Source: Planctomycetota bacterium
GTDB taxonomy: Bacteria > Planctomycetota > PLA2 > JAEUHO01
Assembly (NCBI GenBank): GCA_965223505.1
Contig: CBDCWP010000013.1
Coordinates: forward strand, 128,001 to 192,000
Direction of reading: 5' to 3'
DNA length: 64,000 nucleotides
Shown here: positions 5,212-59,575 of the stretch, piece after piece
Layout of the letters: the number at the start of each line of letters is the position of its first letter
Position numbering within the stretch: position 1 is the first letter of the stretch
Program-made: the position numbers and the translations under genes
Notes under the pieces: model-generated
The model's database searches: none
What the model saw: the letters and a program-made list of their open reading frames with translations, nothing else
What the model was told of the DNA's origin: nothing

Positions 5212-5225
5212 GCAATTTTTATGCC
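5212..5225 (-). promoter_or_regulatory. sigma-54 -24/-12 promoter for asmA-BON
   Basis: Minus strand AGGCATAAAAATTGCT. Confidence 0.75.
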
Positions 5226-5280
5226 TAACCCTAATAAAACGATGGAATACGAAAATGAAGATCTTGAGCAGTTTAAATAC

Positions 5281-5314
5281 GCTCAAAACGAGATAGACTC
5301 CTCTCATTTTGAGA
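5281..5314. promoter_or_regulatory. Tandem palindromic putative enhancer (UAS) pair, 21-bp period
   Basis: GCTCAAAACGAGA (5281) and TCTCATTTTGAGA (5302), between divergent sigma-54 motifs. Confidence 0.7.
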
Positions 5315-5478
5315 GGAGTACTTCGGTTGAAAGCTCGACGTATGTCCTCCTCTCTCTCGAGATTAAAAAAGCTTAAGAGAAAGCGGCGCGCCTGTGGGAT
5401 GTTTCCAACAGACGTTGAGGCCCATCTCGCCCGCGCATTAGCCGGGGGCATTAATATACATGGGGATCTCGGCGTTTT

Positions 5479-5492
5479 GGCATGTTCTTTGC
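5479..5492 (+). promoter_or_regulatory. sigma-54 promoter for AI-2E transporter
   Basis: TTGGCATGTTCTTTGCC. Confidence 0.75.
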
Positions 5493-5578
5493 CTCGCAGC
5501 ACAGCCAAACGGCGCCATTGACGCCCATCATCACACAAGGGGCGCCTGAAGCTCCCCAGTACGCTTCGGAGGGAAAAG

Positions 5579-6673
5579 ATGCCCGACTTGTTCACCCAGG
5601 GGCTCCTACGGCTCGCCTCGATTTTCATTATTCTATGGGGCATCCGAGCTGCTCAGCCCATCGCCGCGCCTCTCATCTTTGCATTATTCTTGATGGGTGT
5701 TTGTTGGCCCCTCTATCGATGGGTTCAGCGTCTGGCGCCGCGAGTTGTGGCTGCGGCGATTGCCCTGCTCGTCTGTTTGATCGCGCTTGGAGGGATCGGC
5801 GGCGGTCTGTACTACAGCGGCGTTCAGATCGCGGGCGATTCCCAAAAGATGGCGCAACTGATCTCTTTGGAGGCCCTGCAACTGCGCTCCTTGGCCGAGG
5901 GGCTGGGGGTGCCGATTCCGCCCCCAGAGAAGGCCGCGTCTGCCGTCGGGACTTTTCTCAAGTACCTATCCTCGCAGGCGCTTTCAGCCAGCACAGGGCT
6001 TTTTCTGGCGCTCACTTTTTTGATGTTGGGTTTGCTCGAAGCGCCAGCCTTTCGCACGAAGCTCGTCGGCAATCGCGCCGATAGCGCTCTGCTTCACAGT
6101 CTGTCGGAAATCGCTTCAGATTTTCAGCGATATATCGCCGCCCGCACGTTTTTGGGGTTGTTGACCGGCCTCCTGAGCGGGCTCGGGGCCTGGGCCATTG
6201 GTCTCGACTATCCTTTTATCTGGGGTCTGACGAATTTTCTCCTCAACTATTTTCCAACCATTGGCTCGATTCTTGGCGTCATCCCATCCACGCTGTATGC
6301 GCTGGCCCAATCAGATGGCGGCGCAGGGTTGGCCCTGGCCGCGCTCGGCGTCATCGGCGGCGTCCAGCTCATCATGGGAAATTACATCGACCCGCTCGTG
6401 CAAGGGCGCGTCTTGTCGCTATCGCCTCTCATTGTGCTGTTATCAGTGGCGTTTTGGGGGTGGATGTGGGGTGTGGCGGGCGCGTTTATCGGCGTGCCGA
6501 TCACGATTGCGATCGTTTTGATCTGTCGACGTTTTGCGTCCACCCGGTGGATTGCCACGCTTCTGGCTGGGACCAACGATGACAACGCCACTCCGATTGT
6601 TTGCGATCTGCGCGTCACAAGGCGACAGCAAGAGGGCGATGTCCCGACATCAACAACGCTCGGCAATAAATAG
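5579..6673 (+). CDS. AI-2E (PerM/TqsA) family transporter
   Basis: Multi-TM; WGLTNFLLNYFPTIG, GNYIDP...LSPL...FWGWMWGVAGAFIGVP. Confidence 0.9.
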   Translation: MPDLFTQGLLRLASIFIILWGIRAAQPIAAPLIFALFLMGVCWPLYRWVQRLAPRVVAAAIALLVCLIALGGIGGGLYYSGVQIAGDSQKMAQLISLEALQLRSLAEGLGVPIPPPEKAASAVGTFLKYLSSQALSASTGLFLALTFLMLGLLEAPAFRTKLVGNRADSALLHSLSEIASDFQRYIAARTFLGLLTGLLSGLGAWAIGLDYPFIWGLTNFLLNYFPTIGSILGVIPSTLYALAQSDGGAGLALAALGVIGGVQLIMGNYIDPLVQGRVLSLSPLIVLLSVAFWGWMWGVAGAFIGVPITIAIVLICRRFASTRWIATLLAGTNDDNATPIVCDLRVTRRQQEGDVPTSTTLGNK

Positions 6674-8307: not shown

Positions 8308-8320
8308 TCCCATTTTGAGA
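8308..8320. promoter_or_regulatory. Single copy of the TCTCA-N3-TGAGA-like palindrome
   Basis: TCCCATTTTGAGA upstream of the MFS gene. Confidence 0.45.
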
Positions 8321-8906: not shown

Positions 8907-9268
8907 TCAGGAGAGTGACTCTGGCGCGCCATTGGGCTCCGGCTCTTCGGGTTGAGCCAAGATGGCGTTGGTGACCGCGCTGATCGCCACACTCCGTATC
9001 GCACCGAATAGACTGGTCTGCACGAAAGACAACAGAGGCGATTTCGAACTCGGCTGATCGGTTGTCTTTCGGGACGGTAATAGGCCTGACGCCATGAACC
9101 CGGCTAGGACGCCGGCGCCCACTGATGGCCAAGGATGCGCCTGTGTCCACGCCTGCACGTCGGCGGCCGTTTTCGCCGTCTCACGCATCTCGGCAAAGGT
9201 CTGCTGCATAGCTTGCTTTGCCTCCTCGGCTTGTCGCCGTAAGAACGCGGCTTCATCGCGCTCGTCAT
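8907..9268 (-). CDS. DUF883/DUF3618-like membrane-anchored protein (start uncertain, possible 1-nt frameshift at start)
   Basis: Helical N-terminus then HPWPSVGAGVLAGF motif; an ATGA overlap with the upstream stop is one base out of frame. Confidence 0.6.
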
Positions 9269-9753
9269 GCCTCTGTATGGTTAGCGCGGCCGGCGGCGCT
9301 GCGCCCAAATTGTAAGTGCTGTTGTTGCTGTCGTTCGGCATAATCTTGAACTCTCTGGGCATGGGCTCGCCCCTGAATACGGGATTTGCCGATAAGCACC
9401 GCAATCCCAAACAAGATGAGGAGTCCGAGCCCTACGATAAGTTGACCTAACCACAAGACCCCGCCAACAGCCGCGCCCACGCCTGAGGACAATCCGGTCA
9501 AAAAGAGAATCACCGCCATGACAAGGGCGCTCACAGCGGCGATGGCGCCTAGAATGCCAACGACCGCCCATAGGGCGGCTTGACGTCCGGACATCTTGAG
9601 AAGATCGAGTTGGGCCCGGATATAATGTGAAAAATAGGCGTACAGTTCGACGCCTTGCTGTAACAGGGTATGCAAGGCTTCTTGCGCCTCTGAAGCGGCG
9701 GTGTTAGGCGCTTCCGCCTCAGAGGACATTGTGGGATCTGCGTGCTCGCTCAT
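9265..9753 (-). CDS. Two-TM holin-like (Phage_holin_3_6/YqjE-like) membrane protein
   Basis: Two long hydrophobic helices; lies in DUF883-BON operon context. Confidence 0.65.
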   Translation of the reverse strand: MSEHADPTMSSEAEAPNTAASEAQEALHTLLQQGVELYAYFSHYIRAQLDLLKMSGRQAALWAVVGILGAIAAVSALVMAVILFLTGLSSGVGAAVGGVLWLGQLIVGLGLLILFGIAVLIGKSRIQGRAHAQRVQDYAERQQQQHLQFGRSAAGRANHTEA

Positions 9754-9810
9754 ATCTGACTCATTGCGTTAGTTGGTCGCTCTGGCATCGCCGCCAGCGG
9801 GCGTCTTCAA

Positions 9811-9841
9811 GCCTGAAAGCGCTCCAACAACGCTTTCAGGC
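9811..9841. terminator. Intra-operon hairpin after BON gene
   Basis: GCCTGAAAGCG-9nt-CGCTTTCAGGC, 11-bp stem. Confidence 0.55.
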
Positions 9842-9858
9842 CGATGGCGACCCAACGG

Positions 9859-10173
9859 CTACTTGACAATCAGGTTGTTTTTGACCTCTTGAACGCCTCG
9901 CACACTCCGCGCAATTTGTTCCGCTTTCTTAGCCTGAGCCATGGTGTCGACGAAACCGCCGAGTTGCACCGTACCCTTAAAGGTCTCAACTTCAACCTGC
10001 AAACCCTTGACCTCCTCGTCTGCTAGCAGCGCCGTTTTGACCTTTGACGCAATGACGCCGTCATCAATCATTTCTCCAGCGCTTTTTTGAGTTCGAGTCC
10101 CAGCGCAACCCAGCATCGTCGCGACGATGCTGACCAAGAGCGCGAGCATAATAGAAGAGATTACTTTCCGCAT
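9859..10173 (-). CDS. BON-domain (OsmY-like) lipoprotein
   Basis: Lipobox LGC; GEMIDDGVIASKVKTALL...VETFKGTVQLGGFV...GVQEVKNNL; RBS GGAGG. Confidence 0.93.
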   Translation of the reverse strand: MRKVISSIMLALLVSIVATMLGCAGTRTQKSAGEMIDDGVIASKVKTALLADEEVKGLQVEVETFKGTVQLGGFVDTMAQAKKAEQIARSVRGVQEVKNNLIVK

Positions 10174-10283
10174 ACTTTATATCCTCCAAGCTAGCCAGTC
10201 AGTTAGTCTTGATACAAACGGCGCCGCCATTTGACATGGTCATCAACAATTCTGTCGAGGCCGAGCGCCAACGCCCGCATACA

Positions 10284-10610
10284 TTATCGACGGCACAGAA
10301 TGCCTAATAACAGCCCAATGCCGCCTGCGATCAGAAGGGATTGAATCGGCTTTTCACGAATTTGCCGCTCTAGCTGGCGCTCCCAATCAGCCGCTTGCTG
10401 GCGGCCTTGCTGATAATACTCAGAAGCAATGGCTTTACCTTGCTCGCCAAGGTGTTGCGCTTTTTCCGCAATATCTTCCCCAACTTGTTGAACTTTTTGG
10501 GCCACCTCTCTCCCGGCCTCCTGCGCCTGATCGCGCAGATGACCTATAGAATCTGGAGATGATGCCATTGTCGTCTCTTGAGGCGTCTCAGGATTGTACG
10601 GCGTTGTCAT
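10284..10610 (-). CDS. DUF883 (ElaB/YqjD) family protein
   Basis: Helical body plus C-terminal IREKPIQSLLIAGGIGLLLGILCRR tail anchor. Confidence 0.88.
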   Translation of the reverse strand: MTTPYNPETPQETTMASSPDSIGHLRDQAQEAGREVAQKVQQVGEDIAEKAQHLGEQGKAIASEYYQQGRQQAADWERQLERQIREKPIQSLLIAGGIGLLLGILCRR

Positions 10611-10634
10611 TGATATTCCTTTCACATAAAAAAG

Positions 10635-10680
10635 ATCTAGATGTCGGATTCTGGCAAGGGCCGTGAGCCGACATCTAGAT
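10635..10680. other. Intergenic inverted repeat
   Basis: ATCTAGATGTCGG-20nt-CCGACATCTAGAT, 13-bp arms. Confidence 0.6.
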
Positions 10681-10751
10681 TCTTAGATAGACAATGTCCC
10701 TAAGCCGATTTAGCCATCACATCGCGTGCGCGCCGAACGCAAGTCTAGCAG

Positions 10752-10937
10752 TTAGTTTTGAGTTTCTTTTTTAATTTTGTCTCCAGCCTTCTCAACTTCT
10801 TCACCCGTTTTTTCAATCATATTATCAATTTTTTTACCCGCCTGTTCCGCAGGCCCTTCTTGGGCTTTGCAGGCGATTACTATGTTAAGTAGAGAAAGAG
10901 CGCATAACAACATGAACATACGCTTGATTAGTGACAT
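10752..10937 (-). CDS. Small lipoprotein (EGPAEQAGKKID motif)
   Basis: Signal peptide ending IAC; acidic/basic amphipathic helix; RBS GAGG. Confidence 0.85.
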   Translation of the reverse strand: MSLIKRMFMLLCALSLLNIVIACKAQEGPAEQAGKKIDNMIEKTGEEVEKAGDKIKKETQN

Positions 10938-11021
10938 ATCTATTTTCCTCAAAAGTTGTCATACGCCATGCATGGCGTATAATCGTTATGTATGGCGAGC
11001 CCCATGTCCGTTATTGTGCGG

Positions 11022-11171
11022 TCACAATGCGCGACGTCCCTGTACGAGCCTGATGACGATCACGACAAGTGCGATTAACAGCAGGAGATGGAGAAGGCCG
11101 CCTAGGGTATAGGACGAGACCATCCCGAGTAACCACAAGATAAGCGCAATAATCACGATGGTCCATAACAT
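11022..11171 (-). CDS. lmo0937-family (DUF5670) small membrane protein
   Basis: MLWTIVIIALILWLLGMVSSYTLGGLLHLLLLIALVVIVIRLVQGRR; RBS AAGGAGA. Confidence 0.92.
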   Translation of the reverse strand: MLWTIVIIALILWLLGMVSSYTLGGLLHLLLLIALVVIVIRLVQGRRAL

Positions 11172-11285
11172 CGGCATTTCTCCTTTGCGAGGTCGTGTGG
11201 GCGAAACAGGACAATTCAACGTTTAGCCTACAAGGCTGCGCGCCTGCTCCCATGCCCAACGCAGGGTTTCAAACCTACTGAGTGA

Positions 11286-11299
11286 GCAAAAGGCGTGCC
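11286..11299 (-). promoter_or_regulatory. sigma-54 promoter for lmo0937-lipoprotein-DUF883-BON operon
   Basis: Minus strand TTGGCACGCCTTTTGCT, perfect consensus. Confidence 0.88.
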
Positions 11300-11410: not shown

Positions 11411-11444
11411 TCTCGTTTTGCAATCATACCCTCTCATTTTGAGA
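11411..11444. promoter_or_regulatory. Tandem palindromic putative UAS pair, 21-bp period
   Basis: TCTCGTTTTGCAA (11411) and TCTCATTTTGAGA (11432). Confidence 0.72.
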
Positions 11445-11688: not shown

Positions 11689-11702
11689 GGTATATTTTTT
11701 GC
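11689..11702 (+). promoter_or_regulatory. sigma-54 promoter towards zwf remnant/DAGK
   Basis: TTGGTATATTTTTTGCT. Confidence 0.65.
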
Positions 11703-11970
11703 TATCTACCGAGATAAACCGTTATCCCTCGATCAACTCCAAGCTGAAAGGACGCCACTTATGCAGACCTCTCATCTAAGAGCGAGTGGCGCGGGCATGG
11801 CGCTGAGCGCCCCACCCAGATCCGTGTATCATCGTAATTTATGGGGTTGCAGGCGACCTTGCCCGTCGCACGTTGATCCCTGCGCTTTGCGCCCTTTACC
11901 GCTGCCAGAGCCTGTCCGCGCCATTCGCCGTTATTGGAGGGGCGAGGCGCTCAGATTGGGTTTGTGCCAA

Positions 11971-12114
11971 GCTTGGTCGATCGTCGATCCACTGATCGCC
12001 AACTGGGAAGCGTTGCCGCCTCCCGACTTGCCGAACTATGCGGCGGGCTCTTGGGGCCCAGAGGCGGCCAACTCGCTGCTTGAGCAAGATGGACGAACAT
12101 GGTATATGGCCTAA
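11971..12114 (+). pseudogene. zwf: Glucose-6-phosphate dehydrogenase C-terminal remnant
   Basis: AWSIVDPLIANW...PNYAAGSWGPEAANSLLEQDGRTW matches the G6PD C-terminus; rest of gene absent. Confidence 0.8.
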
Positions 12115-13624: not shown

Positions 13625-13638
13625 GCAACTTTTATGCC
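13625..13638 (-). promoter_or_regulatory. sigma-54 promoter
   Basis: Minus strand GTGGCATAAAAGTTGCA. Confidence 0.78.
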
Positions 13639-15490: not shown

Positions 15491-15504
15491 GCAATAATAA
15501 TGCC
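15491..15504 (-). promoter_or_regulatory. sigma-54 promoter
   Basis: Minus strand TTGGCATTATTATTGCT. Confidence 0.78.
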
Positions 15505-15622: not shown

Positions 15623-15636
15623 GGCATAAATTTTGC
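15623..15636 (+). promoter_or_regulatory. sigma-54 promoter for PRC-barrel gene
   Basis: TTGGCATAAATTTTGCG. Confidence 0.8.
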
Positions 15637-15788: not shown

Positions 15789-15822
15789 TCTCAAAACAAA
15801 ACTCAGCTCTCTCATTATGAGA
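15789..15822. promoter_or_regulatory. Tandem palindromic putative UAS pair, 21-bp period
   Basis: TCTCAAAACAAAA (15789) and TCTCATTATGAGA (15810). Confidence 0.68.
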
Positions 15823-47362: not shown

Positions 47363-47472
47363 AAATAAAAGTTATCTGACAGCGGGCGGCGCTATTCATG
47401 GGTCGGCTGAGATAAAGGCAAGGTTGATAGAAACATAGACCACGAACTACTACAGTAAAGGGAGATAGCATT

Positions 47473-47988
47473 ATGAAGCGAATCGTTATATGGAGTAGCG
47501 CTATCATGTTGACGATGGCGATTGCAGGGATAAATATATACGCCCAGCAACAAAATCCATCACCTCAAGAAAAAACTGAAGAAAAAGTAGACGAAAAAAC
47601 AGAGGAAAAAATCGAGGAGAAGAATCTCTCGAAGCAGGAAGCGCAAACTGATTCTTCAGATAGTTCAAGCGTCTCCACAGAACAAGAGACGCCACGTCAT
47701 CCCTCAGCTGAGACGGCCTCAACCGTACAGGGCGTTATGCTGGCGTCCGACACAATTATAGGCGCAAAGGTTAGAAATGAGGAAGGTGACGCGGTCGGCG
47801 AGATACAGCGGTTGCTCATCAGCCCGCGATACGGCACGGTTTTGTATGCGGAGTTGGGAGTGGGCGGTTTCTTAGGTATGGGAGAAAAAACGATTATGGT
47901 GCCGTGGAAAGCCATTGAAATCGCACGCAATGGTGATTCATTGGTGCTCAACACGTCAAAGCAGTTGCTTCAAAAAAAAGCTGAGTAA
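47473..47988 (+). CDS. Secreted PRC-barrel domain protein
   Basis: Signal peptide; ASDTIIGAKVRN-x2-G-x2-VGEI...GGFLGMGEK-x3-VPW. Confidence 0.9.
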   Translation: MKRIVIWSSAIMLTMAIAGINIYAQQQNPSPQEKTEEKVDEKTEEKIEEKNLSKQEAQTDSSDSSSVSTEQETPRHPSAETASTVQGVMLASDTIIGAKVRNEEGDAVGEIQRLLISPRYGTVLYAELGVGGFLGMGEKTIMVPWKAIEIARNGDSLVLNTSKQLLQKKAE

Positions 47989-48940: not shown

Positions 48941-49466
48941 CGTCTCCTTGTCTTTCAAGTTGCTTAAGCAAGTGGCGTAGCCAAGTTGCACAGATTCATC
49001 CGCCATCATAGATACTCTTTGACGCTGCTGAACTCATGAAGCCCAAAGCGATAATGCAACCTGACAGCGTTCTAATAAAACGTTTAAGGCATCTTTCTTG
49101 AAGAATTTTATGTCTTCGCTGTTGCCTGTGACATCAAACCTCACAGCTCCTGAGAGCACACTCTATACCAAATATAATAAAACAACTCTTAACATTGTGC
49201 AACGCACCAGTGAAGGACCATCGCAATGTATCTATGAGAGGAGCGCCGTCGCTCGTCCGCATCTATTGATCAAAATCCCCGAGGCGGACGCAGGCGCGCT
49301 GGCGATAGAAATGGCTCACGATTCAGTCGCCTGGCAACGTCGCTACGAAGGAGTTCAAAAATTTATCGGTCCGCTCGACACGCTCATGCAGACTCTGGCG
49401 GACAAGATCGATGACCAGCAATCGTTTCTGGCCAATTCGATGTCGGCTCTGCGACTTGTTGATTCA

Positions 49467-49500
49467 TTTCATTTTGAAATACCTAGGTTTTATATTGAGA
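49467..49500. promoter_or_regulatory. Tandem putative UAS pair, 21-bp period
   Basis: TTTCATTTTGAAA (49467) and TTTTATATTGAGA (49488). Confidence 0.65.
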
Positions 49501-49556: not shown

Positions 49557-49570
49557 GGCATAAAAATTGC
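49557..49570 (+). promoter_or_regulatory. sigma-54 promoter for catalase
   Basis: CGGCATAAAAATTGCC. Confidence 0.75.
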
Positions 49571-49651: not shown

Positions 49652-51160
49652 ATGGCGCAGGAAGATCAAAAGCTTACCACAGCGGCGGGGATACCCGTGC
49701 CGAATAATCAGGAATCCCTCACAGCGGGCCCACGCGGTCCCGTTCTCATGCAAGATTATCACCTCTTTGAAAAGTTGGCCCGCTTCAACCGGGAGCGCAT
49801 TCCGGAACGGGTGGTGCATGCCAAGGGCTATGGCGCCTATGGCGCGTTTACCGTGACGCAGGATATCACTCGCTACACGAGGGCCAATATCTTTGCAGAG
49901 GTAGGCAAAGCAACGGAATGCTTTTGCCGTTTCTCCACCGTTGGAGGAGAGGCGGGATCGGCGGATACGGCTCGCGACCCGCGCGGCTTCGCCATGAAGT
50001 TTTACACGGAGGAAGGCAACTGGGATCTGGCTGGCAATAACACGCCCATCTTTTTTGTGCGCGATCCGATAAAGTTCCCCGATTTCATCCACACGCAGAA
50101 ACGCGAACCTCGCTCGCACCTCAAGCCGAATTGGATGAAGTGGGATTTCTGGTCGCTGTCGCCGGAATCCCTGCACCAAGTTCTCATCCTCTTCAGCGAC
50201 CGCGGCACGCCGAAATCCGCTCGTTTTATGAATGGCTACGGTAGCCATACCTTTAGTTTCATCAACCACCAAGACGAGCGCTTCTGGGTGAAGTTCCATG
50301 TCAAGACGAGGCAAGGCATCGAGAATTTTACCGAGGCCGAAGCGATGCGAATGGCCGGTGAAGCGCCCGATTATTCCACTCGCGATTTGTTCGAAGCGAT
50401 CGAACGCGGCGACTATCCCCAATGGACGATGTACGTCCAGATCATGCCGGAAGAAGAGGCCGAGACCTATCGGATTCACCCCTTTGACCTGACCAAGGTG
50501 TGGTATCACAGCGATTACCCACTGATTGAAGTCGGCGTCATGGAGCTCAACCGCAATCCGGAGAACTATTTCGCCGAGGTGGAGCAAGCGGTGTTCGAGC
50601 CCAACAATGTTGTTCCCGGCATTGGTTTTTCTCCTGATAAAATGTTGCAAAATCGCGTCATTTCCTATCAGGACGCGCATCGCTATCGGCTCGGCGTCAA
50701 CTATGACCAAATACCTGTCAACCAGGCTAAGCACGCTAACGTGAATACCTATCATCGCGATGGCGTGATGCGTGTGGACGGCAATGATGGTCGGCAAGTA
50801 AATTACGAACCCAACAGCTTTGGGGGGCCAGCCGAAGCGCCGGAATACCGCGAACCGCCGCTGCGCATCGACGGGAACGCCGACCGCTACAACAGCTACC
50901 CGTGCGACGACGACGACTATTACGAGCAGCCAGGGCGGTTCTACCGCCAGGCGCTCGACGACACGGGGCGTCAGCATCTGGTGGAGAATCTCATAGGCAG
51001 CTTGCAAGATGTTCCTAACGAGATTCTGTTGCGGCAGCTCTATCACTTTCATAAGGCGGATGAGGAACTCGGCGAGCGCGTGGCGCAGGGACTTAAAGTC
51101 GCCATGGAGGAAGCCCTGAGCCGCGCTACGGCGGAAAACGGCGCGGCTGCGAAGCGCTAA
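49652..51160 (+). CDS. katA: Monofunctional heme catalase (small subunit)
   Basis: [27 protein letters not shown], proximal [22 protein letters not shown]. Confidence 0.96.
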
Positions 51161-51785: not shown

Positions 51786-53414
51786 TCATGGGAGTAGGCG
51801 TAACCAGCGATATCCATACGCTTCCAGATTGATGGTATAGGCATTACTTTGAATTGGCAAGGCTTGACAGTCGCCAAACAAGTCGAGAATATGCTGATTG
51901 TTGTAGTCTCGAAGATCGAGTTTAATCTCACGAGACTTCGATGACAAATTGTGTACAGCAATGATGGTGCGATCTTGCCACTGGCAGCTATGGGCAAACA
52001 CCACCGGATCATCAGTGTCGAGGATGCGCCAGTCTCCCCTGCCAAACTCAGGATGCTCCTTGCGCAATCGAATGGCCCGCTCAATCCAGTTGAGAAGCGA
52101 ATTCGGGTCGCGGCGCTGAGCCGCCACGTTCACTTTTGGGTATTGAAACGGTCCCTTGTCAATGACAGGGCGAATTAAGTCTTCTGGAGAGGCGGTGGAA
52201 AAACCGCCGTTGCTCGCCTCCGACCATTGCATAGGCGTCCGAACGCTATCGCGCTCGTTAAGCGATAAATCCTCACCCATGCCAATTTCATCACCGCACC
52301 AGAGCACCGGCGTGCCGGGGAGGCTGAACAGCAAGCTATAAGCCTGTTCGAGGCGGCGCGGATCGCCTTTGAGCATGGGCGCCAGGCGTCGTCGGATGCC
52401 GCGGTCGTAGAGCTGCATCGTCTCCTTGGGCGCGAACGCCTGAAAGACGTGATCGCGCTGCGCCTCGCTCAACCCTCCGAGATTTAACTCGTCGTGATTG
52501 CGGAGGAAATTGGCCCATTGTCCAGCCTCGGGGATCGAAGGCAACTTATACAATCCTTCGATCAGCGGCAACGCCTGCTGGCGGGCGAGAGCTAGAATGA
52601 GGTGCTGATTGGCCATGAAGTTAAATAACATATGCAACTTGTTGCCATCGCCAAAATATTCGGGCACCTTCTCCATAGCGACATTGGCTTCAGCGAGTAA
52701 AATGGCGTTGCCTCGACGCCACGAGAGAAAATCGCGGAATTCTCGTAGATACTGATACGGATCCGTTACATCGGGGTTGTCAATGCCGCGCAGTTCGATG
52801 AGAAACGGAGCCGCATCAACTCGGAACCCCGAGACGCCCAGGGCAAGCCAGAACCCCATAATTTTACGTATCTCTTCGCGCACCGCCGGATTGGCGATAT
52901 TCAAATCTGGCTGATGTTTATAGAAGCGATGAAAATAATAGGCGCGCGCCTTACGATCGTATGACCACACCGCTTCTTGCACGCCTGGAAAGAGCACGCC
53001 CTCTTCCGCATCCGCAGGTTTGGTGTCGGACCACACGTAATAATCATGGTATGGCGACGAGGGGTCGGACCGCGCCGCTTGAAACCATGGATGGCGATCG
53101 GAAGTATGATTCACCACGAGATCGATGATGACCCTTATGCCGCGATCGTGCGCCTGCTGCATAAATTCGGTGAAATCGCCAAGCGTGCCGAGACGAGGGT
53201 CAACGCCGTAATAATCCATAATGTCATAGCCATTATCGCGGTCGGGCGTGGGGTAAAACGGCAACAGCCATAAGCAATTGACGCCTAACCCTTCAAGATA
53301 CGCCAGTCGCTCTGTCAGCCCCTGAAAATCGCCAATGCCGTCGCCATTCGCATCCTGAAAGCTATCCACATCGAGACAGTAAATAATGGCGTCTTTGTAC
53401 CAAAGATCGTGCAT
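51786..53414 (-). CDS. GH13 alpha-amylase family, trehalose synthase (TreS)-like
   Basis: WYKDAIIY, DANGDGIGDF, DLVVNHTS, GFRVDAAP, LAEAN, FLRNHDEL, RGIRRRLAP. Confidence 0.9.
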   Translation of the reverse strand: MHDLWYKDAIIYCLDVDSFQDANGDGIGDFQGLTERLAYLEGLGVNCLWLLPFYPTPDRDNGYDIMDYYGVDPRLGTLGDFTEFMQQAHDRGIRVIIDLVVNHTSDRHPWFQAARSDPSSPYHDYYVWSDTKPADAEEGVLFPGVQEAVWSYDRKARAYYFHRFYKHQPDLNIANPAVREEIRKIMGFWLALGVSGFRVDAAPFLIELRGIDNPDVTDPYQYLREFRDFLSWRRGNAILLAEANVAMEKVPEYFGDGNKLHMLFNFMANQHLILALARQQALPLIEGLYKLPSIPEAGQWANFLRNHDELNLGGLSEAQRDHVFQAFAPKETMQLYDRGIRRRLAPMLKGDPRRLEQAYSLLFSLPGTPVLWCGDEIGMGEDLSLNERDSVRTPMQWSEASNGGFSTASPEDLIRPVIDKGPFQYPKVNVAAQRRDPNSLLNWIERAIRLRKEHPEFGRGDWRILDTDDPVVFAHSCQWQDRTIIAVHNLSSKSREIKLDLRDYNNQHILDLFGDCQALPIQSNAYTINLEAYGYRWLRLLP

Positions 53415-53472
53415 GTGCTACCTCCTGAAATAATCGTGTCTAGATCTACACGCAGCCGGCGTATACAGGGTC

Positions 53473-54456
53473 TTAGTCGCGGCGTCTGCGTCTGAAGAGA
53501 AAAAGCGCAGCGCCGGCCAGAAATAACCAGTGGCGATTTTTGGTCACCCAGAGCTGCGCGCTCTGCGATTGCGAACGATGATCAAACATACCATGCGCGC
53601 CGTGGTCGCCTTGGACGGGCGCAAACAGATTATCCGCCCGGTTTGCGGGTAGATAGGCGGGTGTTTGTTGAGCGTCATAGCCGGTGCGGGCGAGGTATCG
53701 ATCCAGAAAGCCTGGGATAAATTTCTGTCCCCAAATCGCTTTGACCGTCGGCAAGCCCACGTGGACTTCTCGCCGTTTATGATAAGCGGCCCAGACAATG
53801 GCGTCTGCAGCGACTTCCGGTTGAAAGATAGGCGGCACGGGCTGGGGCTGACGCGGCATGCGGGTTTTGCTCCAGGAAAACTGAGGCGTATTGAGCGCCG
53901 GGAGTTGCACCATGGTCAGGTGGATATGACTGCCATCGTGCAAAAGCTCTGTGCGCAACGAGTCGGTGAAGCCTTTGAGCCCGTGTTTGGCGCCGCAATA
54001 AGCGGCCTGTAATGGAATCGATCGGTAGACCAGCGCCGAGCCCACCTGCACAATGCTGCCTGCATCACGCGGCAGCATACGCTTGAGCGCCGCCATGGTG
54101 CCGTAGACTGCGCCCAGATAGGTCACCTCCGTGGCCCGTTTGAATTCTTTCGGGGACGTCTCTTTTACGGGCGCAAAGACAGTGGCCATCGCATTGTTCA
54201 CCCAGACTCGAATGGGGCCGAGTTCTTGTTCGACCTGCGCCGCTGCTGTTTCAACTTGGTCGGCATCGGCGACATCCGTGGGGATGGCCAGCGCTGTTCC
54301 GCCTAGGGCGCGCACCTCCCGGCAGGTAGCGTCGAGCCCCTCCTGACCACGGGCCAGTAATCCAATGCGGGCGCCTTGTTTGGCGAACGCCCACGCCGTG
54401 GCGCGACCCACTCCGGCCGAGGCGCCTGTAATGACAACGACATCGGAAGTATGCAT
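53473..54456 (-). CDS. SDR family oxidoreductase
   Basis: TGASAGVG, NNA, YCGAK. Confidence 0.93.
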   Translation of the reverse strand: MHTSDVVVITGASAGVGRATAWAFAKQGARIGLLARGQEGLDATCREVRALGGTALAIPTDVADADQVETAAAQVEQELGPIRVWVNNAMATVFAPVKETSPKEFKRATEVTYLGAVYGTMAALKRMLPRDAGSIVQVGSALVYRSIPLQAAYCGAKHGLKGFTDSLRTELLHDGSHIHLTMVQLPALNTPQFSWSKTRMPRQPQPVPPIFQPEVAADAIVWAAYHKRREVHVGLPTVKAIWGQKFIPGFLDRYLARTGYDAQQTPAYLPANRADNLFAPVQGDHGAHGMFDHRSQSQSAQLWVTKNRHWLFLAGAALFLFRRRRRD

Positions 54457-54499
54457 GAATTTTTTCCTTCTCCTGATGAGCATTTCGCTCTGAGATTTG

Positions 54500-54934
54500 T
54501 TAGTTGCCTTCCTGCCAAAAATCTTTCATAGCAGTATAGCCGAAAGAGGCTGACCAGGTAATCAGTAAAAATCCCGCCAGAGCCTCCAGTCCTGCAATGA
54601 TTTTCAAGGCGCCAGTTGGCTGAAAGCTACTTAGCCCTAAAGTACTATAGCTTACTATTGAAAAATAAAAATAATTTAACGGTGTTGGAGTGAATGTGTC
54701 AGTGAATCCGCCAAAGTGCAACAATTGATCAAAAATATAGTATGCGCACGCAAAGAGGCCGATTTCTACAACATGTCCGATGAAAACGAAAAATATTATT
54801 ACAGCAATCCATAAGCGATGGGGAATGGGCAAGAAAGGGAGATAGCGAGAGATTAATTGGAGCGTTTCAAAGTGTATTAAAATAACACAAAAGAGTAGAA
54901 ATATACTTGCGCCAAGTGAAGCGATGATTGTCAT
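54500..54934 (-). CDS. Ion-channel-like (Ion_trans_2) small membrane protein
   Basis: YFYFSIVSYSTLG pore-helix-like motif, GLEALAGFLLITWSASF. Confidence 0.75.
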   Translation of the reverse strand: MTIIASLGASIFLLFCVILIHFETLQLISRYLPFLPIPHRLWIAVIIFFVFIGHVVEIGLFACAYYIFDQLLHFGGFTDTFTPTPLNYFYFSIVSYSTLGLSSFQPTGALKIIAGLEALAGFLLITWSASFGYTAMKDFWQEGN

Positions 54935-55179
54935 TCGAGACCTTCCTAAGTCACCAAGATATGACAAATTTACCATCAATACACATGAATGCCTCTCAAC
55001 TAATGAGATGGTAATTTGACATAGGACATGCTCTTGATAGTATGAAGGCATGTATTTGCTACAGCCGCCAAAACTAAGAAAGAGCATGTCCTGTGGGGTA
55101 TTCAATATCTTGAAATGTATGTCAGTCACACGCGTCACGACTATATTGGTAAGGTATGGCGCGTGTGATCGGGAGCGCG

Positions 55180-56259
55180 TTATGACCGAGGGGTCGGATG
55201 AGTCGATTCCGCTGGCTGCTCTGTCTGATTCGCCTCTTTCTTCGCCGCCTCGATGGAAGCGCTGGCGACCCGTTCAAGCTTCTCTGTCGTTTGACGCAAC
55301 GTCTGATCCGCGCGTTCTTGCGTCAAGCCTTCTCGATTAGCTTGCTCCATCGCGGCGCCGCTGGCGGCGCTGGCAACGTGTTTTGCTCTCTCAAGTTGCT
55401 CTTCGCCGAGTTCCTCAGCGCGGCGCACCAGTTGATCTCGGGTTTCACCCATCAGTTCATCTTCGCGCTCGGTCGGCGGCAAACCCGCGCCCAAAGCCGC
55501 GCCCAAAGCGAACCCTAAAGCGCCGAGCACCAACGGCTGCTCATCGCGTAAATAGTTAAATGTCTCTTTAGTTTTGCCCCCCTGCTGACGGGCTTGATAA
55601 CGGAGTCGGTCAGTAGTATGACCGGCATGCTCACGCGCGCTAGCGGCCATGCCGCTGACGCGTTCTCGGGCGCCGGCGGCGGCATGGCTCACGCCCTCTC
55701 GAGCGCTGGCGGCGGCATGGCTGACGCCCTCTCGAGCGCTAGCAGCGGCATGGCTCACGCCCTGGCCCGCTGCCCTAACGCGTTCTTGAACGCCGGAGGC
55801 CATCTGACCCGCACGCTCCCTGAGGCCATCCGAACGCTCCTGCGCCCCGCGCGCATCCGAAACCGGCGCATTATAGGCGTCATAAACCGTTACGTCACGA
55901 TCATCATGCGCACTGCCAATATAATAGGGATCATGGGCGCGCGTGCGCGGACTAGGACTTGACGTGCGACTCGAGCCCCCCAGCATCAGCCAAGCAAGCC
56001 CGGCGCCGATGAGCGCAACTGGAACCGGATTTTGCTTGATCGACTCGCCCACACTGCTCGCCCATTGGCTCGCCGTTTCCCCCATCCCTTGCTGGTTGTC
56101 ATTGCTGTTGCTTTTGAAATAATTCAAGGCTTGATCGAGAAGCTCGCCAGGCGAGAGCTTGTCGCGAATCGCATCCAACGTCTCACTCATTTCGGCGCGT
56201 GTTTGTTGAATGTCGCGTTGAATCTGTTCGGGACTTCTTGTATCTTGATGTTCACTCAT
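55180..56259 (-). CDS. DUF3618 domain protein with LEA-like repeats
   Basis: SPEQIQRDIQQTRAEMSETLDAI, NPVPVALIGAGLAWL, LPPTEREDELMGE. Confidence 0.88.
   Translation of the reverse strand: MSEHQDTRSPEQIQRDIQQTRAEMSETLDAIRDKLSPGELLDQALNYFKSNSNDNQQGMGETASQWASSVGESIKQNPVPVALIGAGLAWLMLGGSSRTSSPSPRTRAHDPYYIGSAHDDRDVTVYDAYNAPVSDARGAQERSDGLRERAGQMASGVQERVRAAGQGVSHAAASAREGVSHAAASAREGVSHAAAGARERVSGMAASAREHAGHTTDRLRYQARQQGGKTKETFNYLRDEQPLVLGALGFALGAALGAGLPPTEREDELMGETRDQLVRRAEELGEEQLERAKHVASAASGAAMEQANREGLTQERADQTLRQTTEKLERVASASIEAAKKEANQTEQPAESTHPTPRS
55665..55763 (-). repeat. 33-bp tandem repeat x3 (11-mer GVSHAAASARE)
   Basis: Units such as GGCATGGCTCACGCCCTCTCGAGCGCTGGCGGC on + strand. Confidence 0.88.
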
Positions 56260-56684
56260 TATATATGCTCCTTTACCATCTCTTTGTCACGTTGCAGGGA
56301 GGTCGCAGTGCGTTCTGGCGTCAACGTGGTGGTTTTAATCTCATTGCGCCCATTTTGCAGCATGATGTAACCAATTACCGCCAGGACGACACCGACAATC
56401 AGCGCCCCCAACCAGGGGCTTAAAGTTGGGGGCAACAACTCCCCCAATCCATAGATGGCGAAATCGATCAGCGCTAAGAGACCGCCTAACAAGATGACTG
56501 CCCCAATAGCCAGGGTCGACGCGCCTCGACCAACTTGGGAAACCTTTTCTGACATTTCAGCTTTGGCTAACGCGACTTCCTGTTGCACCAATGTCGTGGT
56601 GTCTTGAGCCAGCTCTGAAATTAACACGCCGAGAGAACGATCGTCTTGCGGCGTGCGAGTATGCGAGTTTTGCGGTGACGCCAT
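56259..56684 (-). CDS. Phage_holin_3_6 family membrane protein
   Basis: RSLG-x-LI-x-EL...LVQQEVALAKAEM, two TM, P-x-RT-x2-SL-x2-D. Confidence 0.88.
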   Translation of the reverse strand: MASPQNSHTRTPQDDRSLGVLISELAQDTTTLVQQEVALAKAEMSEKVSQVGRGASTLAIGAVILLGGLLALIDFAIYGLGELLPPTLSPWLGALIVGVVLAVIGYIMLQNGRNEIKTTTLTPERTATSLQRDKEMVKEHI

Positions 56685-56685
56685 C

Positions 56686-57393
56686 TTAATGGTCTCCTCT
56701 GGGCGAAATAGACTCGGGGGTCACGACATCTGAACTCGTTGCGCCAGGGGCGCTTGCAGGGGGCGTCATGGGAGGCGTTGTCGTCTGCGGCGTTGGGACA
56801 TGATTGCCTCTGGGCGAAATGGGCCGAGGCGTCACGACATCCGCACTCGTTGCGCCAGGGGCGCTTCGAGGCGGTGTAGGCTGTCCGGGATGCGAGTATG
56901 ACGCCTGCGTATGCGCAGAGGGCGTGTCGTGACGCTCGGCTGAACTTTTGAGAAATCGAGCAGCCATAAACCCCAGTAAAGCAGCGCTGCCAATAAAGGC
57001 GCCGGGTTGGTTGCGGGCAAAGCTTTCAACCTGTCCCATCAGCGCGCCCATATCGCGATCTTTTAGGGTCTGCGAGAACCGCTCGATCCCCTCCGCTGCT
57101 TGCTGCGTGTACTGCGCCATGGCGCTTTGATTCTGCGTCTGGAGTTCATCGGCCGTGCGGTGTAAAGCCGTTGCTAAACCATTGACCTGTGCGGCCACGG
57201 CGTCTTTTTGATCCTGAAATAGCGCCTCGCCTTGGGCTTTGGCTTCTTGGGTCAGCCGTTGGGCCTCGTGTTGGATGCGGTCGCCAATTTCTTGCGCTTT
57301 CGCTGTCGTCTCTGGGGCCCTTTGTTCAGCGGTGTTAACCGCCGATGTTGTGGTTGACAACGTTGGGTTTTGATAGGGTTGATGTTCACTCAT
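56686..57393 (-). CDS. Stress-associated hypothetical protein (first gene of the DUF3618 trio)
   Basis: VESFARNQPGAFIGSAALLGFMAARFLKSS; RBS GAGGAG. Confidence 0.82.
   Translation of the reverse strand: MSEHQPYQNPTLSTTTSAVNTAEQRAPETTAKAQEIGDRIQHEAQRLTQEAKAQGEALFQDQKDAVAAQVNGLATALHRTADELQTQNQSAMAQYTQQAAEGIERFSQTLKDRDMGALMGQVESFARNQPGAFIGSAALLGFMAARFLKSSAERHDTPSAHTQASYSHPGQPTPPRSAPGATSADVVTPRPISPRGNHVPTPQTTTPPMTPPASAPGATSSDVVTPESISPRGDH
56696..56866 (-). repeat. 60-bp direct repeat x2 (SAPGATS-x-DVVTP-x2-ISPRG)
   Basis: Copies at 56696-56755 and 56807-56866. Confidence 0.8.
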
Positions 57394-57489: not shown

Positions 57490-57503
57490 GCAAGTTCCAT
57501 GCC
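57490..57503 (-). promoter_or_regulatory. sigma-54 promoter for DUF3618 operon
   Basis: Minus strand CTGGCATGGAACTTGCT (same core as 27451). Confidence 0.83.
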
Positions 57504-57588: not shown

Positions 57589-57622
57589 TTTTGTTTTGAG
57601 AATAAAATCGTTCAATTCGAGA
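57589..57622. promoter_or_regulatory. Tandem putative UAS pair, 21-bp period
   Basis: TTTTGTTTTGAGA (57589) and GTTCAATTCGAGA (57610). Confidence 0.62.
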
Positions 57623-57703: not shown

Positions 57704-57717
57704 GGTATAAAACTTGC
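57704..57717 (+). promoter_or_regulatory. sigma-54 promoter for DUF533-YihY
   Basis: ATGGTATAAAACTTGCT. Confidence 0.75.
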
Positions 57718-57906
57718 TCGGTTTCAGTTTGAAATTTTATCCACTGCGTGAAGATGCTCTCGATATCTTCAACACCCAATCTGGAACCCTGGCGTTTGTC
57801 ATGGTAGTCGTCGGACGCCGAACGGTGATGGACATCAGGACATCACATGAGTGAATTCATAAACCGAGAACCACATGTCCTGACCATTAAAGAAGGGAAA
57901 AACCGC

Positions 57907-58491
57907 ATGTTTGATGCTAAACGGTTGCTATTTAGTCTCTTGCGCAGCAGCATGACCGGCTCGCGGTCCCACCGTGCTCGCCATGGATTTGGCCGATCGA
58001 GTATGGGTAGTATGGCCGGAGGGTTGCTCGGCAGCCTTGCGATGACCGCTGTGCAAAGCTATATGAACCGGCAGCAGTCGTCCTCGAGTCCTGCGCCGAC
58101 TGAACAACCCGTCGAATCTGCATCCACAGAGGAAAATGAGGCGGCGCAAGCCCTCGTGCAGGTGATGATCGCGGCGGCGAAAGCAGATGGCGAGGTCTCC
58201 TCTGAGGAACGGCGGCGCATTCTCGATGAAGTCGCGCAAGCTGGCGCTGATGAAGAAGAGCGCGCTTTTCTGCAACGCGAGTTAGACCAGCCAATCGAGC
58301 TTGACGCCGTGCTCAATCGCGTCCGCGACTTGAAGATAGAGGAAGAAGCTTACACGGCTTCATTGCTCGCCATTGAGGTCGACACCCCGGCAGAACAGCA
58401 ATACCTTGCCTACCTGGCGACGCGGCTCAACCTGCCTGCCGAGACGGTGGCGCAGCTTCACGAACGCTTTGACGCCCCACAGCCGCTTTAA
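57907..58491 (+). CDS. DUF533 (YebE/TerB-like) protein
   Basis: MIAAAKADG-x-V-x3-ER-x2-I...Y-x-ASLLAI-x-VDT-x-AE-x2-YL-x2-LA-x2-L. Confidence 0.9.
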   Translation: MFDAKRLLFSLLRSSMTGSRSHRARHGFGRSSMGSMAGGLLGSLAMTAVQSYMNRQQSSSSPAPTEQPVESASTEENEAAQALVQVMIAAAKADGEVSSEERRRILDEVAQAGADEEERAFLQRELDQPIELDAVLNRVRDLKIEEEAYTASLLAIEVDTPAEQQYLAYLATRLNLPAETVAQLHERFDAPQPL

Positions 58492-58570
58492 TCGCGTCTG
58501 GCAAGCAATCCATAAAAAAGTGACACCAACCGGTTGCGCGTATCCGACGCGCAGCCTCACAAGGAGGAAT

Positions 58571-59551
58571 ATGATGGCGGACGCAGCTCACCAGGTAGAA
58601 AACCGAGAGAACGGGCGTGGCCGCGGCGCGGTCGCACCAAGCGAGATTCCACGTTCAGGGTGGCGTGATATCGCCCTGCGAGTCAAAAATGAAATCAGTA
58701 AAGACAACATTGATATGGTCGCGGCCGGGGTGGCGTTGTATGCCCTGATGGCTATTTTCCCAGCCCTCATCGCGCTAATTTCTCTATATGGTTGGTTCGC
58801 GGATCCGATGCAGGTGGAGCAACATCTATCCACATTCACAAGCGTCATGCCGCAAAACGTGCAATCTCTGTTGGCGACGCAAATGGAAAACATCGCCAGC
58901 GGCGCAGAGAGTTCACTGGGGATTGGGGCGATTGCGGGATTTCTGTTCACCCTTTGGAGCGCCTCCAAAGGGATGAAAGCGCTATTTGCGGCCATGAATA
59001 TCGCCTATGATGAGAGAGAAAAGCGCGGTTTTATTACCCTCAATGCGCTCGCGCTTCTTTTCACCCTGGGAGCGCTCATCTTCGGCATCGTCGCCCTGTT
59101 GCTCATCGCGATTCTCCCGGCCTTGCTGGGTCATTTAGGACTTGAGTCGATTGCGCGCGTGGCCGTTTCATTACTGCGCTGGCCGCTGCTAGCCGTCGCT
59201 GTCATAGTGGCCCTGGGCGTGTTGTATCGCTATGGCCCCAGCCGCAGCAACCCACAATGGACCTGGGTGAGTTGGGGCGCGGTCATCGCCACCGTTTTGT
59301 GGCTCATGACGTCGATTCTGTTTTCCGTCTATGTGGCTAACTTCGGCAGCTATAATGAAACCTATGGCTCGCTCGGCGCGGTGGTGGTGTTCCTCATGTG
59401 GCTCTATCTCTCGGCCTATATCGTTTTGATAGGCGCCGAATTCAATTCGGAGATGGAGCATCAGACCCTACAGGATACGACGAGCGGCGAAGAACAGCCG
59501 ATGGGACAACGCGGCGCCCAAAAAGCGGATACGATCGGAGAAATTCCTTAA
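58571..59551 (+). CDS. YihY/virulence factor BrkB family protein
   Basis: GRGA-x2-PSEIP-x2-GW; AAGVALY; NFGSYNETYGSLG; GAEFNSE; RBS AAGGAGG. Confidence 0.94.
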   Translation: MMADAAHQVENRENGRGRGAVAPSEIPRSGWRDIALRVKNEISKDNIDMVAAGVALYALMAIFPALIALISLYGWFADPMQVEQHLSTFTSVMPQNVQSLLATQMENIASGAESSLGIGAIAGFLFTLWSASKGMKALFAAMNIAYDEREKRGFITLNALALLFTLGALIFGIVALLLIAILPALLGHLGLESIARVAVSLLRWPLLAVAVIVALGVLYRYGPSRSNPQWTWVSWGAVIATVLWLMTSILFSVYVANFGSYNETYGSLGAVVVFLMWLYLSAYIVLIGAEFNSEMEHQTLQDTTSGEEQPMGQRGAQKADTIGEIP

Positions 59552-59561
59552 GGAAACAGTT

Positions 59562-59575
59562 GGCACGCTTTTTGC
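59562..59575 (+). promoter_or_regulatory. sigma-54 promoter for sigma-70-family factor
   Basis: TTGGCACGCTTTTTGCT, perfect consensus. Confidence 0.88.

Follow-up and report, generated by a model that had tools for sequence, protein, structure and literature searches.

Can a gene set of the general-stress type be run from sigma-54 promoters? This question is raised by a 64,000-nucleotide stretch of contig CBDCWP010000013.1 (C13:128001-192000; hereafter, the window) in the metagenome-assembled genome (MAG) of a Planctomycetota bacterium; positions are given in window numbering unless C13, C37 or L162 is stated. The original prediction, made from the sequence alone, listed 25 candidate -24/-12 promoters in one gene cluster and proposed that this lineage runs a set of stress effectors from RpoN plus a bacterial enhancer-binding protein. 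Our analysis indicates that the cluster is probably a self-contained sigma-54 regulon with a stress-type output, carried by an apparently acquired low-GC island of ~70 kb and run by an ATP-driven activator. The predicted wiring itself, namely the control of a stress-type gene set by sigma-54 and an activator, is well supported, and it is strengthened by a shared putative enhancer and by the activator and kinase genes that lie behind the same promoters.

The GG-N10-GC motif is present at all 25 listed coordinates and strands. As had been claimed, nearly all of these sites (22 of 25) conform to the strict pattern TGGYAY-N5-TTGC; the remaining three, which carry AGG at 5212(-) and 24490(+) and CGG at 49557(+), deviate at the first T only. 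The spacing from GG to GC is exactly 10 nt at 25 of 25 sites, within an extended consensus TGGCAC-N5-TTGCW that we take to agree with the textbook sigma-54 consensus. The window contains 23 strict matches, whereas 100 dinucleotide-preserving shuffles averaged 0.71 matches and never exceeded 3; the earlier estimate was about one chance match or fewer per 64 kb. The reversed pattern, used as a further control, has no match in the window and 29 in the genome, and a chance origin of the motifs is ruled out by these two comparisons. The bare GG-N10-GC pattern is not enriched in the window (905 matches vs 835 expected), and therefore the signal resides in the extended consensus.

The 23 strict matches consist of 22 listed sites and one at 40425(+), inside a coding sequence (CDS). 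The latter (TGGTAT-N5-TTGC, 40425-40439(+)) lies within the CDP-alcohol phosphatidyltransferase CDS, ~585 nt ahead of the PAS kinase gene, and could be an internal promoter or a chance match.

When the motif density inside the cluster was compared with that outside, the window, which makes up 1.2% of the genome DNA, was found to hold 23 of the 38 strict matches genome-wide; six others lie on the rest of C13 and nine on the other 43 contigs. A weight matrix, derived from the 25 sites themselves and hence biased toward them, reaches 16 bits or more at 28 places genome-wide, 27 of which are on C13. The remaining low-GC part of C13 (133 kb, 60-61% GC) contains only five strict matches. Therefore, low GC alone does not explain the motifs, and we rejected the view of them as its by-product. 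Conservation around the sites is restricted to positions -27 to -9, and since the flanks are not conserved beyond these limits, the sites are not copies of a repeat; this rules out a dispersed repeat as their source. For a further control, we used 160 loci of distant homologues (at most 50% identity) of P0001, the activator encoded in the window, taken from genome and metagenome contigs as controls and not as relatives. The strict density there is 0.2 per 10 kb (43 sites in 1.98 Mb) compared with 3.6 per 10 kb in the window, and no clustering of promoters or enhancers was found at these 160 loci. Outside C13, the strict motif has nine matches against 28 for the reversed control, despite the presence of ~23 activator genes in the genome; the host's own sigma-54 promoters must therefore deviate from the strict consensus or be few.

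Placement of the sites was judged with 68 curated genes (84.6% coding) as the reference; some start codons were picked with the site positions known, which makes this test slightly circular. None of the 25 sites overlaps a curated CDS, in agreement with the earlier description of all sites as intergenic. A same-strand start codon is located 43-245 nt after the -12 GC at 24 of the 25 sites, often with an AGGAG-like ribosome site. The claim that the sites face genes thus holds for these 24 and fails for the orphan AGG site at 24490-24503(+), behind which no gene, Rfam family or terminator was found and for which no enhancer was found. Three further sites, 49156(-), 64044(-) and 68216(-), would probably raise the number of -24/-12 sites from at least 25 to 28. 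The first, which is absent from the earlier list, is a candidate with the sequence GGTATAGAGTGTGC (49156-49169(-), matrix score 15.2), located before a gene for a metallo-beta-lactamase-fold hydrolase and with an enhancer 314 bp upstream. The other two are strict sites past the window end. The site at 64044(-) precedes a hybrid kinase gene, and that at 68216(-), which has its own dyad pair at 68456, precedes genes for a small membrane protein, a vWA protein, a PP2C phosphatase and a kinase-like protein.

A second sequence element recurs upstream of the promoters. It was found as paired TCTCA-N3-TGAGA 13-mers with the full consensus TCTCTCAWWWTGAGAGA, and the predicted enhancer consists of two 17-bp palindromes, TCTCTCA-N3-TGAGAGA, whose centres are 21 bp (two helical turns) apart, or 20 or 22 bp in two cases. 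Ten such pairs are present in the window. Those with a 21-bp distance are at 5281-5314, 11411-11444, 15789-15822, 25907-25940, 27332-27365, 46156-46189, 49467-49500 and 57589-57622; the pair at 36583-36617 has a 22-bp distance, and that at 40036-40068, which lies between the activator and kinase units, a 20-bp distance. A pair is centred 72-302 bp upstream of 17 of the 25 promoters and is mostly common to two divergent promoters. When up to four mismatches were allowed at the 21-bp offset, all seven matches in the genome were on C13 (six in the window and one at 68456); at up to six mismatches, other offsets also match on C13, so that only the four-mismatch threshold is informative. Perfect 13-mers number five in the genome, all on C13, and 11 of the genome's 21 copies of TTTGAGAG are in the window. 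One copy of the perfect 15-mer is present in each of eight genomes among 400 others of the phylum, which is about the level of the reversed control.

A strong single dyad (15.7 bits) is also present at 8308-8320, where the divergent genes for MFS_3 and a 181-residue protein are separated by 31 bp; these genes form the only units without a sigma-54 site. This dyad may reflect a repressor-type use of the activator.

The island encodes regulators that fit these elements. Activator 1 (P0001; 37863-39221(-)) is a receiver-AAA+-HTH_8 protein of the NtrC type in which GAFTGA and D53 are present, and its gene follows csbD and the DUF1328/YtjA gene behind the promoter at 39948(-). Its paralogue, activator 2, is encoded just past the window end (68746-70101; L162:6746-8101) and contains a receiver, a sigma-54-interaction AAA+ domain and an HTH_8 helix-turn-helix. 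The two are 66% identical over 450 residues and almost identical in the C-terminal helix-turn-helix. In an alignment of 16 members of the activator family, GAFTGA (G218-A223), D53, D9/D10 and K103 do not vary. The top NCBIfam models for P0001 are NtrC, AtoC and ZraR, and its closest named relative is ZraR (~45-46% identity), but the protein remains below the cut-offs of all named NCBIfam equivalogs (NtrC, AtoC, ZraR, GlrR, LuxO and others), with best scores of 438.8 (cut-off 558.6), 430.1 (714) and 412.8 (760) bits. The region upstream of activator 2 contains one perfect dyad and a -10 element resembling TGnTAGAAT, but no -24/-12 site. It might be speculated that activator 2 is under a sigma-70-type promoter overlapped by the single dyad, an arrangement that would allow autorepression.

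Several signalling proteins are encoded along with the activators. A cytoplasmic PAS-type histidine kinase (41024-42151(+)), recognized by its domain matches, is a likely partner of activator 1, as judged by adjacency only. The product of 61249-63951(-), located behind the strict site at 64044(-), is a membrane hybrid kinase with CHASE-like, GAF, HisKA, HATPase and receiver domains, and a stand-alone receiver protein is predicted from a domain match at 45374-45847(-). A kinase with RsbRD_N-HisKA and HATPase parts is present as two overlapping open reading frames (ORFs) at 22667-23954(+), which reflects a frameshift or an assembly error. In addition, the island contains a gene for a sigma-70 family factor (P0002; 59619-61157(+)) of 512 residues with regions 2-4, and the promoter at 59562(+) is 43 nt ahead of it. 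P0002 is RpoD/RpoS-like in that RpoD and RpoS are its best models; it is below every NCBIfam cut-off (214.7 bits against the RpoS model, cut-off 378.7).

Two other regulatory loci were seen on the same contig. A second non-ECF gene of the sigma-70 family (a region 3 match in a 447-residue frame) is located at C13:236729-236953, in the low-GC part and 45 kb beyond the window. At L162:2657-6102 (window about 66657-70102), genes for a 41-residue membrane peptide, a vWA protein, a PP2C phosphatase and a kinase-like protein stand behind a sigma-54 site; the vWA-PP2C-kinase set presumably resembles the TerY-phosphatase-kinase triad of tellurite-type stress loci.

These components can be arranged into a working scheme. 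The island kinases (PAS, CHASE-like/GAF hybrid and RsbR-N-type) would sense stress and phosphorylate the activators, which would bind and oligomerise at the paired dyads and open sigma-54 closed complexes at the expense of ATP. Because the activator 1 and PAS kinase units diverge from one enhancer, positive feedback or autoregulation would be expected, and activator 2 would repress its own sigma-70-type promoter through the single dyad. The promoter at 59562(+) would drive the RpoD/RpoS-like sigma factor and thereby add a second tier. The output would be an osmotic, desiccation, oxidative and stationary-phase protection set that includes an alternative cytochrome oxidase.

Approximately 64 of the 68 curated genes sit in units headed by a sigma-54 site. 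The four exceptions are a TauD gene at the left edge, an 87-residue ORF, the MFS_3 transporter gene and the 181-residue ORF. Families were assigned with Pfam and NCBIfam, and they support the presence of CsbD, BON, ElaB/YqjD-like, YtjA, YqaE and catalase proteins, as originally reported, although the match to DUF883 (ElaB/YqjD-like) is weak (E 7e-4). Small stress or envelope proteins include CsbD, DUF1328 (YtjA), three BON proteins (one of them an MscS fusion), the DUF883 protein, two YqjE-like proteins, DUF3618, DUF5670, Pmp3/YqaE, an sll1863-family protein, Usp and three PRC-barrel proteins. Osmotic and ion-related genes encode trehalose synthase TreS, two MscS channels (including the BON fusion) and a K+ channel, and oxidative and metal-related genes encode a catalase and a prokaryotic metallothionein. 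An SSADH-like dehydrogenase, a DAGK/YegS-type lipid kinase and a transglutaminase-like protein represent metabolic and lipid functions. Membrane and transport proteins comprise two each of AI-2E/PerM and BrkB/YihY together with AsmA-like, DUF533/TerB-like, DUF1206, DUF4112 and DUF2252 proteins, and an aa3-type cytochrome c oxidase operon is also present. We take this effector set to be largely the family set of the RpoS, SigB and EcfG regulons.

From left to right, the sites and their predicted units are arranged as follows, with the distance to the upstream enhancer centre in parentheses. The site at 5212-5225(-) (AGGCAT-N5-TTGC; 72 bp) heads a unit at 805-5148(-) for an AsmA/DUF748-like protein, a BON protein and an unknown of 100 residues, and 5479-5492(+) (182 bp) faces an AI-2E/PerM transporter gene. 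The unit behind 11286-11299(-) (128 bp), located at 8907-11177(-), encodes DUF5670, a secreted protein of 61 residues, DUF883 (ElaB-like), BON, YqjE-like and a tail-anchored protein of 167 residues, whereas 11689-11702(+) (262 bp) precedes a G6PD_C fragment and the DAGK/YegS lipid kinase gene. The fragment (11761-12114) is an ORF of 117 residues whose only match is to the final 45 residues of glucose-6-phosphate dehydrogenase. A secreted protein of 113 residues without a family is encoded behind 13625-13638(-), for which no enhancer was found. Small unknowns and a trypsin-like protease follow 15491-15504(-) (302 bp), and a PRC-barrel protein follows 15623-15636(+). An SSADH-like aldehyde dehydrogenase gene lies behind 18113-18126(-), and the divergent site at 18200-18213(+) heads a unit at 18361-24420(+) for a transglutaminase-like protein, BON-MscS, a 97-residue protein, DUF2252, the split kinase and a 165-residue protein; no enhancer was found for either site.

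In the middle of the window, 25822-25835(-) (88 bp) precedes a DUF1206 gene, 26006-26019(+) (82 bp) metallothionein and DUF4112 genes, and 27257-27270(-) (78 bp) the Pmp3/YqaE gene. The oxidase unit (27571-34453(+)), headed by 27451-27464(+) (102 bp), encodes an AI-2E transporter, COX2-cytochrome c, COX1 (919 residues), CtaG and a cytochrome c. The COX1 ORF (29568-32327) has its COX1 domain only at residues 121-565 and overlaps the subunit II ORF by 230 nt; it may represent a fused subunit I+III or a mis-set start. PRC-barrel and BrkB/YihY genes are found behind 36482-36495(-) (105 bp). The unit of activator 1 (36732-39836(-)), headed by 39948-39961(-) (91 bp), encodes CsbD, DUF1328 (YtjA), the activator and an EEP-family nuclease/phosphatase, and 40162-40175(+) (110 bp) precedes the genes for the CDP-alcohol phosphatidyltransferase and the PAS histidine kinase.

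Further to the right, an MscS channel gene and an sll1863-family stress protein gene follow 43182-43195(-) and 43254-43267(+), respectively, neither with an enhancer found. The stand-alone receiver and an unknown of 175 residues belong to 45997-46010(-) (162 bp), and 46303-46316(+) (130 bp) heads a unit at 46562-47988(+) with one or more small ORFs, Usp and a PRC-barrel protein. The catalase gene (49652-51160(+)) is behind the CGG site at 49557-49570(+) (74 bp). A six-gene unit ending in TreS (51786-57393(-)), which encodes a 235-residue helical protein, YqjE-like, DUF3618, a K+ channel, SDR and TreS, is headed by 57490-57503(-) (102 bp); 57704-57717(+) (98 bp) precedes DUF533/TerB-like and BrkB/YihY genes. 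Finally, 59562-59575(+), the site of the sigma-70 family gene, has one weak single enhancer-like site (59419).

Several findings weigh against so unified a regulon. The upstream enhancer is missing at 8 of the 25 promoters (13625-, 18113-, 18200+, 24490+, 43182-, 43254+, 59562+ and 15623+), and given this, the whole set may not be run by one activator type. Transcription units and operon membership were assumed from strand and spacing. The label 'general stress' comes from family annotation, and ~20 of the 68 genes have no family. Some genes are split or fragmentary, namely the kinase at 22667-23954, HATPase and receiver fragments at 44037-44590 and the G6PD_C fragment at 11761-12114; such genes, together with single-base differences from contigs of the probable source sample, imply an error-prone assembly or else a decaying island. 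The sole rpoN gene reads in three frames (AID, the first part of CBD, and the rest of CBD with DBD), and a single MAG contig is all that links the island physically to the genome with rpoN.

The first of these points bears on the possibility that the sigma-54 promoters are real but form a patchwork of small units with different activators and signals, for which the term 'general stress response' would be an overstatement. Among the eight promoters, 15623(+) has a pair on the downstream side, 182 bp away in the leader. The other seven share no palindrome or 9-mer except a ribosome-site string, and no weak dyads were found near them except the single one at 59562(+). A patchwork would also accord with the two activators in the region and ~23 in the genome, with at least three kinases that have different sensor domains, and with the mixed content of respiration, lipid enzymes and protease. 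However, 17 of the 25 promoters share an enhancer of a fixed 21-bp geometry that is seen nowhere else in the genome, the recognition helices of both local activators are near-identical, and the enhancer-bearing units already cover osmotic, oxidative, membrane and respiratory functions. We therefore regard a mere patchwork as unlikely and favour one regulon.

At two of the enhancer-less places, 18113-18213 and 43182-43267, the sites form back-to-back pairs whose -24 elements are only ~60-75 bp apart.

The second possibility is that the island is silent or not of this genome, being either a decaying relic in a host without a functional rpoN or foreign DNA joined by assembly or binning. The AID, CBD and DBD domains of rpoN each match once in the genome, on C37:19043-20484. 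Two assembly frameshifts are likelier than a broken gene as the cause of the frame breaks, because single-base insertions relative to the window occur in contigs of the probable source sample, at 46545, 46653 and 49088. That at 46653 fuses two small ORFs into a 111-residue ORF abutting the Usp gene, and some apparent gene remnants may be assembly errors or strain variants. The genome also yields 33 matches to Sigma54_activat, of which 23 score at least 172 bits. It encodes a PSD1-domain protein, a family without a match in 14 control genomes, which agrees with a planctomycete host but does not prove one.

The base composition of the island is very different from that of its host. The assembly (5.15 Mb, 44 contigs, 92% complete) consists mostly of contigs with 67-70% GC, and the window has ~55% GC (49-63% in 2-kb steps) against ~68% for the genome. 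Contig C13 has 68% GC over its first 65 kb and then falls stepwise to 52-63% until its end at 267 kb, with the window being lowest; the fall extends over >30 kb without a sharp junction. The GC content at third codon positions of long ORFs is 0.65 in the window and 0.78-0.79 on host-like contigs. The regulon extends over about 70 kb (~0.8-70.2 kb in window numbering, and hence ~6 kb past the window end), and the flanks at C13 108-128 kb and 198-210 kb contain genes for MFS transporters, monooxygenases, amidases and TauD, not stress genes. None of the genome's 17 tyrosine-integrase matches is on C13, and no integrase or conjugation genes were seen with the island. C13 contains no ordinary tRNA, and the window contains no tRNA and no Rfam family. 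The sole tRNA call on the 267-kb contig (ARAGORN; C13:102042-102132) is of undetermined type with a four-letter anticodon (catc).

The cluster appears not to be shared by relatives of the host. In 30 relatives from the same family and order, strict counts are close to those of the reversed controls, and no cluster was seen among the matches listed (152 others are outside this list). We searched sampled genomes for the activator family at E <= 1e-140, with 4 to 19 first-look candidates per genome scored. No member of the family turned up in 400 further genomes of the host phylum, nor in the phyla of a Bryobacteraceae MAG (0 of 201), a Polyangia MAG (0 of 201) and a Methylomirabilis MAG (0 of 87), nor in one further phylum (0 of 201). 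A word-indexed search of 5.8 billion proteins found at least 119 clusters of activator relatives with 62-94% identity, nearly all of 451 residues; of the 120 clusters listed, from JGI, ENA and Logan metagenome data, one is activator 2 itself. One relative (64% identity) is labelled Candidatus Tectomicrobia. Fragments 90-98% identical to eight island genes are present in contigs of a run from a second study, so that the system also occurs outside this genome. Relatives of the catalase are diffuse at 64-69% (Methylobacterium, Aggregatilineales, Gammaproteobacteria and Planctomycetaceae). No match of 60% or more was found in the plasmid database. The island thus appears to be foreign to this genome and acquired, and as an island, it is probably not a lineage trait. 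This changes one part of the original proposal. The wiring to RpoN and an enhancer-binding protein is strongly supported by the near-consensus sites, the enhancer at 17 of 25 promoters, the two NtrC-type activators and the effector families, but its attribution to the lineage is not supported, given a 55% GC island in a 68% GC genome and no cluster among the listed matches of 30 relatives.

A silent or misassigned island would be consistent with the three-frame rpoN, the split and fragmentary island genes, the deviant base composition and the failure to find the activator family in the 400 sampled genomes of the phylum. Nevertheless, near-consensus promoters and enhancers and mostly intact long ORFs are unexpected in a decaying relic. 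The single-base indels in the probable source-sample contigs point to assembly error behind the frame breaks, loss of sigma-54 is unlikely in a genome with ~23 activator genes, and the stepwise fall in GC shows no sharp junction. We consider this explanation quite improbable and an acquired regulon the better account. TGGCAY-N5-TTGC could also serve as the target of a different DNA-binding protein or belong to a dispersed repeat, insofar as the motif was found by pattern only, but this is very improbable for an asymmetric motif that points into genes with exactly 10 nt from GG to GC, has unconserved flanks and no reversed match in the window, and co-occurs with paired dyads at a typical activator distance and with sigma-54 activator genes.

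A broader hypothesis, which we offer tentatively, views the island as a portable general stress response of the plug-in kind, equipped with an enhancer of its own, two activators, kinases and a sigma factor for a second tier, and sigma-54 wiring as the property that lets such islands spread. Sigma-54 is conserved across phyla, and its promoters stay silent in the absence of their own activator, so that such an island could enter an unrelated host without leaking and without host regulators. If true, this would account for an activator family with many members in metagenomes and none found in ~1,100 sampled reference genomes.

How does the island compare with known systems? In the literature searched, which covers few subscription journals, we met no account of a sigma-54-driven regulon of the general-stress type. 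In a 2011 comparative survey of sigma-54 functions, a term search gave no occurrence of osmotic, universal stress, catalase or trehalose, and its mentions of 'general stress' all concern SigB and RpoS. The earlier suggestion that the architecture is not a described general stress response agrees with these searches, but narrower sigma-54 stress regulons, those of NmpR and PexR, have been published.

NmpR of Myxococcus xanthus (NmpRSTU) is described as an NtrC-like regulator of seven sigma-54 promoters and 23 genes scattered over the genome; its site, GCGCA-N5-TGCGC, is paired, mostly with 14-15 bp between sites, and the regulon, which has an oxygen-use theme, includes Usp and a cbb3 oxidase and autoregulates its own and the kinases' operons (PMC11841059). 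The island resembles NmpR in its NtrC-like receiver activator, its paired dyads upstream of sigma-54 promoters and the presence of Usp and an alternative oxidase, with a putative autoregulation. It differs in having at least 25 promoters and ~60 genes in one block with an osmotic/desiccation/oxidative set, and in its site, TCTCTCA-N3-TGAGAGA at a 21-bp centre spacing, which does not match the NmpR site. PexR, also of M. xanthus, is described as a GAF-domain H2O2 sensor that activates two genes (ahpC and katB) with sigma-54, binds dyad repeats and also represses a sigma-A promoter (PMC12754779). On this description, the sigma-54-linked catalase and the dyad sites are common to both systems, and repression by PexR at the sigma-A promoter resembles the putative autorepression by activator 2. 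Unlike PexR, which controls two genes, the island activators are two-component receivers, not GAF sensors.

In the Hk2-Rrp2-RpoN-RpoS pathway of Borrelia burgdorferi, a receiver activator and sigma-54 transcribe an RpoS-like sigma gene, which is essentially the sole sigma-54 target and whose product then governs stress or adaptation genes. The position of 59562(+), 43 nt before a sigma-70-family gene, is reminiscent of this cascade, but most island effectors appear to be wired directly to sigma-54, and the sigma gene product scores below the RpoS cut-off. The island has the same activator architecture as NtrBC (glnAp2) and ZraSR-zraP of Escherichia coli, and presumably also their site geometry, that is, a 17-bp dyad, paired sites and divergent sigma-54 promoters around one enhancer. 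It differs from both in that P0001 is below the equivalog cut-offs and in site sequence, regulon size and content. The transmissible locus of stress tolerance, or locus of heat resistance, of Enterobacteria and Pseudomonas (~15-19 kb; heat and chaperones) is likewise a horizontally moving island of stress-protection genes; to our knowledge, it is not driven by sigma-54, and the present island differs from it in that no integrase or conjugation genes were seen.

The RpoS (Enterobacteria), SigB (Bacillus) and EcfG (Alphaproteobacteria) regulons are each defined by a dedicated sigma-70-family factor and its promoter. With these the island shares, as we understand their content, CsbD/YjbJ, OsmY/BON, ElaB/YqjD/YgaM (DUF883), YtjA, YqaE/Pmp3 and a KatE-type catalase, and further trehalose synthesis, a GabD-like SSADH, MscS and PRC-barrel proteins. 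Dedicated sigma-70-type control is absent: the island promoters are of the -24/-12 type, which requires an ATPase activator, and the sigma-70-family gene is itself a target. The regulon would thus act like an RpoS, SigB or EcfG regulon but through sigma-54 and an ATP-driven activator. The usual picture of sigma-54 is one of small, separate regulons that serve nitrogen, flagella or envelope functions. Here, one enhancer type and one activator family seem to control ~60 stress genes and at least 17 sigma-54 promoters, possibly 28. If true, a general stress programme can run on an ATP-gated, zero-background switch, can be mobile, and comes with defined DNA parts, namely a 17-bp dyad pair and a -24/-12 core.

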